Under the pieces are notes generated by a model. It saw nothing but the letters and a program-made list of their open reading frames with translations, was not told the DNA's origin and made no database searches. This document shows positions 15,304 to 17,933 of a stretch of DNA of 64,000 nt, piece by piece. The position numbers were made by a program, and so were the translations under genes. The stretch's first letter is position 1, and each line of letters opens with the position of its first letter. The DNA comes from a virus: UHGV virus genome UHGV-0084588; one strand, written 5' to 3'.

Positions 15304-15831
15304 ATGGCATATCGTGTCGATTTAACGAAAGCACCTAAACAAATTTTAGTAGACCGGATTAACTACGTATTTAGTCTATCCTATACTGCTGATAACATCG
15401 AGTTTAACGCAAACGGCGTTCAACCACTAACTTTAGCAGAACGTCAACGTTACGGGCTAGAATCAAAGGTTGCTGCCGTCTTCCGTAACGGCGTTGTCGG
15501 AAACCAGGAATTCATTTTAACTCGCGTTGATTTGGCAACGTTCCTGGCCGATGAACCGGTGAGTGTACCGAAAGGCGCAGTAACGTCCAGCGAAGAGTTG
15601 GCCGATTATATCGTTGCGCAAACAGGGATTGACCTGCGTGCCGACGACATTATGATTGAGCCGATTTCAGAGGAGCTGGATTCTTATGATGTTCGTCTCG
15701 TCCCGAATCATTTGTCTTTTAAAGGAACGATTCCGGTCGTATTTACTGATTCCACTCCACGCAAATTGGCGTCTCTTGTGACGAAATTGGCGTTGGATGG
15801 GTTCCGCCCAGGAGAATTAATCAATGTCTAA
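15304..15831 (+). CDS. hypothetical protein (175 aa)
   Basis: ORF 8 nt after the previous stop, same strand. Confidence 0.55.
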   Translation: MAYRVDLTKAPKQILVDRINYVFSLSYTADNIEFNANGVQPLTLAERQRYGLESKVAAVFRNGVVGNQEFILTRVDLATFLADEPVSVPKGAVTSSEELADYIVAQTGIDLRADDIMIEPISEELDSYDVRLVPNHLSFKGTIPVVFTDSTPRKLASLVTKLALDGFRPGELINV

Positions 15832-16711
15832 TGTCAAAGTTTACGACGGTAAACTCTCGACGGTAACGCTTAATGCGATGCGTTTGGCTACCGCATTAAT
15901 TACCGGTGCTGACGTGCAATACCCACAAAAATCCACACTGAATGAGTTCTATAAACTCATGCAAACACCAGTGCCGGACGGTAAAGCGCGTCCTCATTTG
16001 CAGTACATGGCAATTGGTAACCGTGGCCATATGGTCGACACCTCTGATGTGGTGGCTGACGTTGTGCCTGTAGGTAAAGAGCCCATTGCTTCCGGGATGT
16101 TTTCCCGCGTTCCGTTTGTCCTGCGTACAAAAGACAATGATCTGTCTGACGAACAACGTCGAAACTATGCTTTTCGTACTTTGGAAACGTTTAACAAACG
16201 CGAATACTGGGCGTATTACTTAAAACGCATCGATATGCGCGCTGTAAAAACCACCGATTACGATATCAAGCGTGAGAACGGTGTTGAGACTGTCGAAGAC
16301 TTTGTATACACCGACACGGAGTTAAACCCCGTGCCGAAAGTATTGCCTGATTACGATTACGACGACGATGGCACCGTTGCAATTCCAGACGGACGTTATG
16401 TCGAATCGGGTGCTGACCTGGTTATTCCGTGGACAGACTTCGATGTTCAGGAATATATGAACGTAACGAGCATTATGCGTGGCAGCCCGCGTAGTTCAAT
16501 CATCTCTGAACTGGCACTCTGCTCAGGGTTAGACCAGGTAGCGTCCGGGGACTCTGCAACTGGGTCTAAATTCAGTTATAACGAGGCGATTGGGGTCCAG
16601 GCGCTGTACTATATTTCGATGTTTACCAACCTGGCACAGACGAATGACAAACTGTCTTTGACCATTCGCATCGGACAACCTGCGCCGTTCTTCCTGGGGA
16701 CTGCTAACTGA
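15824..16711 (+). CDS. hypothetical protein (295 aa)
   Basis: ORF overlapping the upstream stop by 8 nt (operon-like coupling). Confidence 0.55.
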   Translation: MSNVKVYDGKLSTVTLNAMRLATALITGADVQYPQKSTLNEFYKLMQTPVPDGKARPHLQYMAIGNRGHMVDTSDVVADVVPVGKEPIASGMFSRVPFVLRTKDNDLSDEQRRNYAFRTLETFNKREYWAYYLKRIDMRAVKTTDYDIKRENGVETVEDFVYTDTELNPVPKVLPDYDYDDDGTVAIPDGRYVESGADLVIPWTDFDVQEYMNVTSIMRGSPRSSIISELALCSGLDQVASGDSATGSKFSYNEAIGVQALYYISMFTNLAQTNDKLSLTIRIGQPAPFFLGTAN

Positions 16712-17355
16712 TGTTGATACCCGAGCCGAGACTTCCAGATAAGATGGTAAGAATCGCGGCAATAGACCCCGGTACGAGCCATCTTGGTATGGCAGTATTG
16801 GATTGGGAATACGGCAGCGATCAAGCCGAAGTGGTTTGGGCTGATACCATGCATGTATTAGACCCAACGCATCCAAATGCGTTCGCAGAGTGTGTCGGTA
16901 AACGTGACGATCGTTTAGTTAAGCTCGAAGCTTGTTACCGTGAATTTCTTCGGATTGCCTGCCCAACTTTCGTTGCAACTGAGACACCGTTCATGCGGAG
17001 AGCAAAACTCTCCGCTTATGAATCTGGCGTCGAACTACAATTAATGTTGCGACGTACTTTGTGGGATATTTACCCGGAGAAAATTTTACACGGCTTCAAT
17101 CCTATCATTGTAAAATCATTCGTTGGGGTGGAGGCGAAGGGGACGGATAAAACCGATATGTTTCGGGCCGTGACCAAACTCTACCGTGAACATGCTTTGT
17201 TTGATATTACAACGTTAGATGAGCACAGCATTGATGCTGTGGCGGTGGGAAATATTTTCGTCAGGGTAAATCTGTTAAACTTAAACAGCTTGCTACCGCC
17301 TAAACAAAAGTCGACCAAGACCTCCAGGCGGAGAAGGCGTCGGAGAAAACGTTAA
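16711..17355 (+). CDS. RuvC-like Holliday junction resolvase with poly-Arg C-terminal tail
   Basis: N-terminal IAAIDPGTSHLGMAV resembles the RuvC catalytic Asp motif; later ETPF and HSIDAVAVG acidic motifs fit the RuvC fold; C-terminus KSTKTSRRRRRRRKR. Confidence 0.65.
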   Translation: MLIPEPRLPDKMVRIAAIDPGTSHLGMAVLDWEYGSDQAEVVWADTMHVLDPTHPNAFAECVGKRDDRLVKLEACYREFLRIACPTFVATETPFMRRAKLSAYESGVELQLMLRRTLWDIYPEKILHGFNPIIVKSFVGVEAKGTDKTDMFRAVTKLYREHALFDITTLDEHSIDAVAVGNIFVRVNLLNLNSLLPPKQKSTKTSRRRRRRRKR

Positions 17356-17933
17356 TGGAACCAAGCACACAAGCAATACCCACCGAAATACTTGACTTAC
17401 TGATTCAAGCTGGAAACAGAAAGTTAAGTAAAGAACAGTCTGAACAGTTAACGAAACTCTTGAAAGCGGCGTATGGGGATGAAGTCGATGTTGACGTCAC
17501 CCGTTCGGGAACAAAGATTCTTTCCGATCTACGACCGACGCTAATCGATAATTTAGGCAAAATATCAGAACAATTCCATCAGCAGGCAACCGATGCTGTG
17601 GAATCTCTCGGGGATGAGATTAGCAAAGAAACCATGCTAACCTTGTGGCCGAAATTAGCCGCTCCTCAGAAGTTCATTATTGCCCTCTTGACATTGGCGA
17701 CGGTTATTGTAACCGGATTCTTGGGTTACGACACGCACCAACATTTTCCAGAAGACAGTCTAGACGTTCTGATTGTGACGTTGGTACCGTTCTTTGCATT
17801 GGTTGTTTTTGCGACTTGGCCGATTAAAACGTTGGCTTATAAGTCTCTTGAGATAGCCACAAAAGTTGTTGAGAAGAAGCTTGAGAAATCAGGCCAGCTT
17901 AAGTCGAAGACAGAAAGCCCAGCAACGAAATAA
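17355..17933 (+). CDS. membrane protein (two predicted TM helices)
   Basis: Two hydrophobic segments (FIIALLTLATVIVTGFLGY and VLIVTLVPFFALVVFATWPI); terminator downstream. Confidence 0.55.
   Translation: MEPSTQAIPTEILDLLIQAGNRKLSKEQSEQLTKLLKAAYGDEVDVDVTRSGTKILSDLRPTLIDNLGKISEQFHQQATDAVESLGDEISKETMLTLWPKLAAPQKFIIALLTLATVIVTGFLGYDTHQHFPEDSLDVLIVTLVPFFALVVFATWPIKTLAYKSLEIATKVVEKKLEKSGQLKSKTESPATK

Follow-up and report, generated by a model that had tools for sequence, protein, structure and literature searches.

RuvC-like Holliday junction resolvases are already annotated in nucleus-forming jumbo phages and have been noted in comparative surveys, so the presence of such an enzyme in a phage of this kind is expected. 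The chimallivirus proteins of PHROG 159 (those of phiKZ, gp140; PhiPA3, gp159; 201phi2-1, gp225; Goslar, Goslar_00010; and PhiEaH1), several of which are annotated as Holliday junction resolvases, end 12-25 residues past the catalytic H..D pair and have no polybasic tail. Unlike bacterial RuvC, the RuvC of jumbo phages has no accompanying RuvB-like ATPase (PMC7824862). Our literature search found nothing on the resolvase, its localization or its tail, orthologues such as those of phiKZ (gp140) and SPN3US included, and the resolvase goes unmentioned in the main text of the core-genome paper on the Chimalliviridae.

The phage enzyme T7 endonuclease I has a restriction-endonuclease-like fold, forms a domain-swapped dimer and is unrelated in fold to RuvC. 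This junction-resolving enzyme carries a disordered, mainly basic 16-residue N-terminal peptide, which is needed for long residence and one-dimensional diffusion on duplex DNA in finding junctions (PMC9547003).

Here we describe a resolvase gene in a 64,000-nucleotide stretch of the virus genome UHGV-0084588, hereafter the window. The source is a jumbo phage resembling SPN3US and Asesino, one of the nucleus-forming chimalliviruses that lack PhuZ. A sequence-only reading of the window had proposed that the protein combines a RuvC-like catalytic core with a basic C-terminal tail foreign to bacterial RuvC, and that this tail might add non-specific DNA affinity or act as a targeting signal.

The resolvase gene and its neighbours

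The resolvase gene lies at positions 16711-17355 on the plus strand, stop codon included. It starts with ATG and encodes 214 residues; the C-terminal end is KSTKTSRRRRRRRKR, and the translation closes with ...LLPPKQKSTKTSRRRRRRRKR. The open reading frame, PHROG 159, the RuvC fold and synteny together identify the product as a putative RuvC-like junction-resolving nuclease. Its orthologues include phiKZ gp140, PhiPA3 gp159, 201phi2-1 gp225 and SPN3US ACQ60_gp181, and on the evidence of sequence and gene order it is the phiKZ gp140 orthologue in conserved synteny.

Both neighbouring genes are translationally overlapped with the resolvase gene. The upstream gene (15824-16711, plus strand) encodes a virion structural protein (PHROG 3315; Pfam DUF7208), whose stop overlaps the resolvase start in the sequence TGATG. 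Downstream, the resolvase stop overlaps the start of the next gene (17355-17933, plus strand) in TAATG. This gene encodes a 192-aa protein of PHROG 8722, the translation of which has two hydrophobic stretches of membrane-spanning length. A Shine-Dalgarno-like GGAG for the downstream ATG at 17355 is found at 17342-17345 on the plus strand, within resolvase codons R211-R212. No tRNA genes were found in the window, and thus none for rare arginine codons.

In PhiPA3, 201phi2-1, pVp-JHP1101, SPN3US and pVa-21, the gene directly 5' of the resolvase gene is likewise annotated as encoding a virion structural protein; for these five phages the conservation of the neighbour refers to the annotation, the Pfam family being known only in the window and in the P0102 contig, where the DUF7208 gene adjoins the resolvase gene on its upstream side. 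This arrangement holds for most of the chimalliviruses examined but is not universal, since in Goslar, KpLz-2_45, Kodama and FishSpeaker the gene directly upstream is annotated just as 'hypothetical'.

The nuclease core

The resolvase matched the PHROG 159 profile, 'RuvC-like Holliday junction resolvase', over residues 1-211 (E=4.4e-37), and tblastn matched it to 157 jumbo-phage records, including those of PhiPA3 gp159 and 201phi2-1 gp225. It is about 80% identical to the proteins of the SPN3US group and 25-37% identical to the chimallivirus orthologues that end without a tail, with which it shares the same motifs. An AlphaFold2 model of the monomer (pLDDT 87.3, pTM 0.84) has the element order beta-beta-beta-alpha-beta-alpha-beta-alpha-alpha-alpha, that is, a predicted RNase H-like fold with RuvC topology. 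The 11 best PDB matches of the model in Foldseek were bacterial RuvC (E 2.5e-9 to 8.7e-8; target-normalised TM 0.68-0.77; structures compared: 4LD0, 4EP4, 6S16, 7W8D, 6LW3 and 1HJR). Fowlpox resolvase, chloroplast MOC1, lactococcal phage bIL67 RuvC and yeast Ydc2 ranked after them. These enzymes, together with canarypox resolvase, share the fold and also work without RuvAB, but they are more distant than bacterial RuvC (E 5e-5 to 1e-3; chains of 130-240 residues). The best named viral structural matches to the model were jumbo-phage resolvases. A family profile built without the tail matched Thermus RuvC at E=5e-5.

Seven residues, D19, E91, F94, K135, K147, H172 and D175, were invariant among 39 aligned homologues and aligned with the D, E, F, K, K and H..D of RuvC. 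D19 (codon 16765-16767, plus strand), in the motif IDPG, is the predicted first catalytic carboxylate and aligns with D7 of Thermus RuvC. The second, E91, belongs to the E-x-x-F motif of RuvC together with the conserved aromatic residue (E91-T-P-F94, 16981-16992, plus strand), all four positions of which are invariant; the family's 'tetPf' aligns with 'VEEQF' of Thermus RuvC, E91 corresponding to E70. The third and fourth catalytic residues, H172 and D175 (H172-S-I-D175, 17224-17235, plus strand), stand at the start of the last helix in the motif DEHSID, which was present in every distant phage orthologue examined, and the two correspond to the H..D of Deinococcus RuvC. K135 corresponds to the lysine of QVKQ in Thermus RuvC, and K147 to that of ADKE in Deinococcus RuvC. 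In E. coli RuvC the conserved aromatic residue and the two lysines are F69, K107 and K118, which have established roles. Because D19, E91, H172 and D175 are invariant and fall on the RuvC catalytic positions, the objection that the catalytic acids might have been lost on proper alignment fails, and with PHROG 159, the RuvC fold and the aligned catalytic residues in agreement, the RuvC-like core of the sequence-only reading is borne out.

The protein nevertheless differs from its bacterial counterparts. Identity to bacterial RuvC is only about 17-22%, and the core, at about 190 aa with small insertions, is longer than the 153-179 residues of the solved bacterial chains. For the resolvase alone, Pfam PF02075 gave no match at E<=1, and the NCBIfam RuvC equivalog scored 14.1 bits, short of its cut-off of 163; PF02075 was matched by 15 of the 39 close homologues, with a best E of 1.8e-7. 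As the resolvase lies below the curated Pfam and NCBIfam thresholds, its identity is established through PHROGs, the family profile and the structure. Thus, the alignments indicate a divergent RuvC relative that is not an equivalog of the bacterial type, and alignment and model together indicate that the core is a genuine RuvC-family nuclease with predicted cleavage activity. As an enzyme it departs only modestly from a known one and offers nothing new.

The polybasic tail and its linker

The tail, K198-R214 (KQKSTKTSRRRRRRRKR; 17302-17352, plus strand), contains 12 Lys or Arg residues and no acidic residue. It is joined to the last helix by a Leu-rich linker ending in Pro-Pro, N187-P197 (NLLNLNSLLPP; 17269-17301, plus strand). 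This appendage, made up of the last 25 or so residues, begins about 13 residues past D175, where the helix holding that residue ends. Model confidence falls at the linker from a pLDDT of 92 to about 70; across residues about 190-214 it is 55 and then 49, with no secondary structure, and the tail is accordingly predicted to be disordered. In the homologue alignment L194 of the linker was invariant and L189 was conserved in at least 90% of sequences, while the tail-less orthologues had no counterpart to the linker.

Eleven of the final 15 residues are Lys or Arg. With the K+R content of the window's long ORFs (11.0%) as background, the binomial chance of this is 2.7e-8 per ORF, or about 3e-6 over the 113 window ORFs of at least 80 aa, none of the others having more than 5 Lys or Arg among their final 15 residues. 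The tail shifts the net charge of the resolvase from -5 to +7. Six of its eight Arg codons are AGG, AGA or CGG, whereas these three account for 25% in the long ORFs of the window (p=0.004). Since an in-frame tail is found in every relative that reaches the C-terminus, it is neither a chance run nor a sequencing artefact, which confirms the basic tail noted earlier. As to the tail being foreign to bacterial RuvC, the solved bacterial chains comprise 153-179 residues, whereas the tail begins here after about residue 190.

Distribution of the tail

Of the close homologues, 52 (40-99% identity) extend to the C-terminus, and every one of these has a Lys/Arg-rich C-terminal extension of 19-57 residues. 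The last 20 residues hold 11-15 Lys or Arg in 52 of 59 close homologues, the sequence itself being variable; the remaining seven represent gene calls that are cut short or frameshifted. When the tree was computed from the core alone, the tailed proteins formed one clade in 27 of 30 bootstraps. Its members come from Seoulvirus, Erskinevirus, Machinavirus, Wellingtonvirus, Derbicusvirus and Vibrio pVa-21, and the clade appears to match the PhuZ-less 'phuzzywuzzyvirus' clade. Most chimallivirus orthologues, including those of the phiKZ group, Goslar and PhiEaH1, lack the tail, which therefore sets the SPN3US/Asesino/CR5/pVa-21 clade apart among chimallivirus resolvases. The tail is thus not peculiar to this protein but is a conserved feature of the whole phage clade, and, to judge from the aligned sequences, it is maintained by selection there.

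Three further proteins, P0093, P0102 and P0195, are also tailed, yet this trio grouped with the main tailed clade in 0 of 30 bootstraps. One of them shares the resolvase gene neighbourhood (the P0102 contig). This second small lineage seems to have acquired its tail independently, which would give at least two origins within the enzyme family.

Compensation for an acidic core was also considered as a reason for the tail. Mean core net charge was -4.0 in tailed proteins and -2.7 in tail-less ones (p=0.03), a weak and unconvincing difference, and we rejected the explanation: tailed cores are just marginally more acidic, so the tail does not clearly make up for a lost basic surface.

Similar tails in other proteins

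For SPN3US, we scanned 817 ORFs of at least 60 aa for at least 10 Lys or Arg residues among the last 20. Only two annotated proteins had such an end, the resolvase and one DNA helicase, and no comparable polybasic tract was found anywhere in the other long ORFs or real proteins of SPN3US. The poly-Arg C-terminus of the helicase is conserved in the clade and absent from the homologues of phiKZ, PhiPA3, Goslar and KpLz-2_45; it has no Leu-rich linker resembling that of the resolvase. In Vibrio pVa-21, the resolvase is tailed and the helicase is not, and strict co-distribution of the two tails was rejected on this ground.

Possible roles of the tail

We consider it probable that the protein is a RuvC-family junction-resolving endonuclease whose disordered tail serves as an electrostatic DNA tether, and this is the best explanation of the data. 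By analogy with RuvC, the resolvase would act as a homodimer, in which D19, E91, H172 and D175 would bind Mg2+ and two strands of four-way or branched DNA would be nicked. Its gene lies in a putative late block of structural genes and is translationally coupled to its neighbours. The enzyme would rid the phage DNA, roughly 220 kb in length, of branches left by recombination and replication, either ahead of packaging or while it proceeds. The two disordered tails of a dimer may hold the enzyme on duplex DNA and so allow it to slide to junctions. Such a tethered search would be useful to an enzyme working without RuvAB, and the full SPN3US record contains no RuvA or RuvB annotation.

Several findings favour the tether. 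The tail is predicted to be disordered and shifts the net charge from -5 to +7. In the model, it begins where the helix bearing H172 and D175 ends, and the other tailed protein annotated in SPN3US is a helicase, likewise a DNA-tracking enzyme. Given the precedent of T7 endonuclease I, we lean towards DNA affinity as the function of the tail. The analogy is a functional one: model and sequence place a disordered basic terminal peptide near the DNA-binding face of the resolvase, as in the T7 enzyme, but the T7 peptide is N-terminal, shorter and less charged. The basic C-terminus of FEN1, both a nuclear localization signal and a DNA-binding element, is an attractive analogy, but the present reading does not rest on it. 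Because most chimallivirus orthologues function without a tail, a tether would be dispensable for basic function, and the invariant linker leucine suggests a specific contact that a tether of pure charge does not explain.

The same leucine, together with the nearly invariant L189, resembles a short binding motif more than a spacer, and linker and tail might instead form a docking module for a specific acidic partner. Candidate partners are the portal or packaging machinery located at the nuclear shell and a recombination or single-strand-binding protein with an acidic tail, and docking would recruit resolvase and helicase to a shared complex. T4 endonuclease VII is known to associate with the portal protein gp20, and in most of the chimalliviruses examined the resolvase gene adjoins head and virion genes by a putative portal block. 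However, the helicase tail lacks a similar linker, and the resolvase tail varies greatly in order and in length. So variable a tail is more in keeping with non-specific electrostatics than with a defined interface, and docking appears improbable. Proximity to virion genes could also be read to mean that the resolvase is itself a virion component, its tail targeting it to the capsid or binding packaged DNA, and basic tails are common on capsid-internal proteins of other viruses. This is the least probable of the readings considered. Mass spectrometry of 201phi2-1 virions detected the flanking gp224, gp226, gp227 and gp228 but not the resolvase gp225, a tail-less orthologue, and in the SPN3US RefSeq record the neighbours are virion structural proteins while the resolvase is a 'hypothetical protein'. 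It is also very improbable that the tail contributes little to the protein and is mainly a by-product of constraint at the nucleotide level, namely of a purine-rich 3' end that serves ribosome binding and coupling of the downstream gene and that slippage may have enlarged. The TAATG overlap, the GGAG 9 nt upstream of the downstream start and inside tail codons 211-212, the bias of the Arg codons described above, and the GGAGG of SPN3US and comparable purine-rich stretch of pVp-JHP1101 at the same 3' end of the tail-coding region all agree with such a constraint. Yet a ribosome-binding site accounts for the last 2-3 codons and not for 17-40 basic residues, which led us to reject it as the whole explanation, and the downstream genes of tail-less orthologues are equally close. 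Moreover, the Vibrio and P0102 tails are written mostly in AAA/AAG and CGN codons, so that what relatives conserve is the basic amino-acid content and not the codon usage.

A role in localization or retention was the other possibility raised by the sequence-only reading. The tail would then be a linear signal specific to the PhuZ-less clade, by which the resolvase, and in the enterobacterial branch the helicase, is imported through the chimallin shell or held in the DNA-filled nucleus. The confinement of the tail to the apparent PhuZ-less clade and its conservation across it, the conserved poly-Arg C-terminus of a second DNA enzyme of the clade, and the description of the shell as negatively charged (PMC13282480) are consistent with such a signal. 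So is the course of Asesino infection, in which host DNA persists in the cytoplasm and a DNA enzyme must therefore be steered to the right DNA. In contrast, nuclear import in phiKZ-type phages has been reported to depend on surface patches read by Imp1/PicA and not on terminal signals. UvsX and a subunit of the non-virion RNA polymerase are among the proteins that enter the nucleus of Asesino, and their SPN3US counterparts were not among the proteins with polybasic termini, and the SPN3US ORF scan revealed no class of terminal signal shared by proteins entering the phage nucleus. With the helicase as the sole second case in the window and SPN3US scans, we rejected a general or shared targeting signal; that only two SPN3US proteins are tailed, and that pVa-21 has the resolvase tail without the helicase tail, leans the evidence the same way. 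A localization or retention signal is thus doubtful. More doubtful still is the narrower proposal that a C-terminal poly-Arg/Lys tail in the PhuZ-less branch sorts or retains a few DNA-tracking enzymes (the resolvase and, in the enterobacterial sub-branch, the helicase) in or on the phage nucleus, maybe keeping them off the undegraded host chromosome.

Discussion

One large lineage of nucleus-forming phages, apparently the PhuZ-less clade, has a conserved and newly noted marker in the poly-Lys/Arg tail. What seems new at this locus is this clade-marking tail, its at least two apparent origins and its occurrence, within the lineage, on a second DNA enzyme. If the tail acts as an electrostatic tether, the resolvase would join T7 endonuclease I as the second natural example of junction search along very long DNA that needs no motor of the RuvAB type. 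Should it affect localization instead, it would bear on how proteins sort into the phage nucleus, and, were the sorting-signal reading true, the tail would be the first terminal 'nuclear localization signal' known from a phage and would differ from the surface-patch licensing described for phiKZ.

The phage and the resolvase gene

The nearest DNA in the phage collection is that of Erwinia phage Asesino (72.8% identity over the region), and the August 2025 GenBank phage collection holds no match to this phage above ~73% DNA identity. The resolvase protein shares ~80% identity with its counterparts in Salmonella jumbo phages of the SPN3US group; for Erwinia phages and Cronobacter phage CR5 the figure is 65-79%. 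Asesino was shown experimentally to form a nucleus, with no noticeable degradation of host DNA during infection, and all members of its chimallivirus clade (Seoulvirus, Erskinevirus, Machinavirus, Wellingtonvirus, Derbicusvirus and one Vibrio phage) lack the tubulin PhuZ (PMC11724907). The similarity to Asesino and the SPN3US group, taken with the placement of Asesino, shows that the window is DNA of a phage belonging to this clade without PhuZ. The public assembly collection contains the identical resolvase sequence (window 16711-17355; loci L020-L023) in 481 blocks. These lie on contigs as long as ~220-225 kb, whose sources are a number of metagenome projects and an NCBI assembly (GCA_042601545.1); the phage is therefore widespread.

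The resolvase ORF (16711-17355, +) lies exactly where the sequence-only reading had placed it. It opens with ATG and comprises 214 codons and a TAA stop, and its product ends in ...NLNSLLPPKQKSTKTSRRRRRRRKR. The start shares one base with the upstream stop (TGATG) and the stop shares one base with the downstream start (TAATG); the three genes thus form a translationally coupled chain. The upstream neighbour is a DUF7208 gene, as it is on the contig of the homologous protein P0102. In PhiPA3, 201phi2-1, pVp-JHP1101, SPN3US and pVa-21, an annotated virion structural protein gene lies directly 5' of the resolvase; no such neighbour was seen in Goslar, KpLz-2_45, Kodama or FishSpeaker. For the Salmonella phages SPFM1, 7, 8, 9 and 20 (proteins P0054-P0056, P0058 and P0059), the deposited gene calls attach the ~25 first resolvase residues to the upstream virion protein's C-terminus and go no further, which looks like frameshift errors of the assemblies and not real variants. 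The downstream gene (17355-17933, +), which overlaps the resolvase stop, encodes a 192-aa protein of PHROG 8722 with two hydrophobic stretches of membrane-spanning length and no Pfam or NCBIfam match. By place alone, its counterparts are PhiPA3 gp160, annotated as an Rz-like spanin, and the 201phi2-1 virion protein gp226.

The catalytic core belongs to the RuvC family

PHROG 159 ("RuvC-like Holliday junction resolvase") matched residues 1-211 with E=4.4e-37. A Pfam search with the window protein alone gave no match, and the NCBIfam RuvC equivalog scored 14 bits, under its cut-off of 163; Pfam RuvC was matched by 15 of 39 close homologues (best E 1.8e-7), and a profile of tail-free cores found Thermus RuvC at E=5e-5. 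A confident AlphaFold2 model built from a 39-sequence alignment (pLDDT 87.3, pTM 0.84) had bacterial RuvC proteins from Deinococcus, Pseudomonas, Thermus and E. coli as all of its 11 top PDB matches (E 2.5e-9 to 8.7e-8, target-normalised TM 0.68-0.77), followed by fowlpox resolvase, chloroplast MOC1, lactococcal phage bIL67 RuvC and yeast Ydc2, and the top named matches in a viral structure library were jumbo-phage Holliday junction resolvases.

In the alignment, D19, E91, H172 and D175 are invariant, with D19/E91 aligned to D7/E70 of Thermus RuvC and H172/D175 to the H..D motif of Deinococcus RuvC. Also invariant and aligned with RuvC counterparts are F94 (an aromatic residue at Glu+3), K135 and K147, which correspond to F69, K107 and K118 of E. 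coli RuvC. Thus, the family profile, the tail-free core profile, the predicted fold and the invariant catalytic residues bear out the RuvC-like core claimed from sequence alone, and the acidic residues on whose conservation that claim depended are retained. Because these residues are invariant and aligned with those of RuvC, the protein is almost certainly a RuvC-family nuclease. The kind of enzyme is already known: several phage records label its orthologues, which include phiKZ gp140, PhiPA3 gp159 and 201phi2-1 gp225, as RuvC-like resolvases, and the literature notes them too. In a comparative survey, these jumbo phages were found to have a RuvC-like resolvase but no RuvB-like protein to go with it (PMC7824862).

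A polybasic tail conserved in one clade

The last helix of the model (171-188) begins at the catalytic H172/D175. No secondary structure follows this helix, and pLDDT drops to 70, 55 and 49, so residues ~190-214 are predicted to be a disordered appendage. This consists of a Leu-rich linker (N187-P197) ending in Pro-Pro, in which L194 is invariant and L189 nearly so, and a polybasic tract (K198-R214) with 12 K/R and zero acidic residues, and it shifts the monomer net charge from -5 to +7. K/R make up 11 of the 15 final residues, with a binomial probability of 2.7e-8 per ORF (background K+R 11.0% in the window's long ORFs), and no other ORF of at least 80 aa in the 64 kb scanned exceeds 5/15 at its C-terminus. 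The tail first reported from the sequence is therefore real and is moreover not private to this phage, since 52 of 59 close homologues carry 11-15 K/R in their final 20 residues, in variable order and length; in the remaining 7, the gene call is truncated or frameshifted and stops short of the C-terminus.

More distantly, the tail is present in Vibrio phages pVp-JHP1101 and pVa-21 (~35% identity). The PhiPA3 and 201phi2-1 orthologues stop directly after the last helix, and a basic tail is lacking in those of KpLz-2_45, PhiEaH1, FishSpeaker, Kodama and pEa_SNUABM_54 and only weak in that of Goslar. When 1.84 billion representatives were searched with a profile from which the tail had been removed, and which was hence not biased toward tailed proteins, 1145 relatives came up. 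The best 150 of these matches were combined with selected close homologues and named phage orthologues (n=169); 30 of the set carry the tail, whereas 139 stop 12-25 residues past the H..D motif. Mean net charge of the cores in this set was -2.7 for tail-less and -4.0 for tailed proteins; a slightly acidic core is unusual in a DNA-binding nuclease.

When only the cores were used for a neighbour-joining tree, 27 tailed sequences, including that of the window, formed a clade in 27/30 bootstraps. The other three, P0093, P0102 and P0195, were placed elsewhere and joined the main tailed clade in 0/30 bootstraps; one of them, from a different phage lineage, has its gene in the same neighbourhood. The simplest reading of the tree is at least two gains of the tail, with probable convergence in the separate lineages; one gain followed by many losses is also compatible with it. 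The main tailed clade matches the published PhuZ-less clade in membership and host range, and from the overlapping membership we infer that the two are the same.

Other polybasic C-termini

We reassembled the SPN3US genome in full and counted K/R in the last 20 residues of each of its 817 ORFs of at least 60 aa. The resolvase (ACQ60_gp181) came first, with 12, and the sole other annotated gene with at least 10 encodes the DNA helicase ACQ60_gp230 (locus L010, 33403-35109, outside the window), which ends in ...SKGVSRRRRRR; no comparable tract was found anywhere in the other real proteins among these ORFs. Third among annotated genes in C-terminal basicity is ACQ60_gp154 (SPN3US 100864-101169), a hypothetical 101-aa protein with a Lys-rich end (SKKAAKATKKVVDKRKRAVA) that may be a small DNA-binding protein.

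The helicase end (...SKGVSRRRRRR, ...RRRKRR or ...RRGRRR) is kept in homologues down to ~41% identity. Helicases of phiKZ (gp075), PhiPA3 (gp068), Goslar, KpLz-2_45 and Vibrio pVa-21 have no tail, and in pVa-21 the resolvase is tailed and the helicase tail-less. Thus, poly-Arg C-termini appear on two DNA-tracking enzymes in the enterobacterial part of the PhuZ-less clade. Many copies of the SPN3US-type helicase (P0248, P0265-P0269, P0272, P0292-P0304 and others) are ~340 residues longer (~907-921 aa) and carry the Pfam homing-endonuclease/intein-type domains PF14528, PF05203 and PF05204; in part of the clade, the gene seems to have taken up an intein or homing endonuclease.

Role of the tail

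The protein would act as a dimeric junction-resolving nuclease of the RuvC type that clears branches from replicating, recombining phage DNA, and would probably be made late, with the surrounding structural genes, in the manner of the T4 (gene 49) and T7 (gene 3) debranching enzymes. Adjoining the active-site helix, the tails would provide each dimer with two flexible, strongly positive arms that keep the enzyme on duplex DNA and allow it to reach junctions by sliding. Experimentally, the nearest precedent is T7 endonuclease I, which has a disordered, mainly basic 16-residue peptide, N-terminal whereas the resolvase tail is C-terminal. The T7 enzyme's long residence on duplex DNA and its facilitated 1D diffusion there both depend on this peptide, and enzyme lacking it finds junctions by random collision only (PMC9547003). 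We give an even chance to the tail being mainly a DNA tether, and a RuvC-family nuclease combined with a tether tail is the best available account, one that we somewhat favour. Of this account, the analysis shows the fold and catalytic residues of the protein, and the predicted disorder and charge of the tail together with its conservation throughout the clade, its probable convergence and its rarity in the proteome; dimer formation, substrate, timing and the tether role are inferred.

The suggestion of the sequence-only reading that the tail might be a targeting signal is disfavoured for general import: among annotated SPN3US genes only the resolvase and the helicase are tailed, many other proteins that must enter the nucleus, including RNA polymerase subunits and UvsX (nuclear in Asesino; PMC11724907), have no such tail, and published work concludes that import into the phage nucleus relies on surface patches read by Imp1/PicA, not on terminal signals (PMC13282480). 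A localisation or retention signal specific to the PhuZ-less clade is unlikely, and somewhat less likely still is a docking module of tail and linker for an acidic partner, which would explain the invariant leucines of the linker.

It is very improbable that the tail is a by-product of the ribosome-binding site. A GGAG serving the downstream gene does lie inside tail codons 211-212, 9 nt 5' of the downstream ATG, with a purine-rich element at the equivalent place in SPN3US and pVp-JHP1101, but this constraint accounts for the last few codons at most, and downstream junctions are equally tight in tail-less orthologues. Moreover, basic amino-acid content is conserved across relatives whereas codon usage is not, because the Vibrio and P0102 tails are built from AAA/AAG and CGN codons. 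In the window, 6 of the 8 tail Arg codons are AGG, AGA or CGG, versus 25% in its long ORFs (p=0.004; 17311-17352), and there are no tRNA genes; rare Arg codons before the coupled start might slow ribosomes there. Least probable of all is an encapsidation signal, as the four neighbours of the tail-less 201phi2-1 orthologue were found in virions but the orthologue itself was not.

The searchable literature makes no mention of a polybasic tail as a conserved feature of the PhuZ-less chimallivirus lineage, of its probable repeated origin or of a helicase also carrying one. The tail is thus probably new as described here: conserved in this lineage, common to a helicase and probably of more than one origin. 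As a structural variant it is modest, and its proposed function is plausible and unsurprising; were it a sorting signal, for which the chance is small, it would be considerably more interesting.
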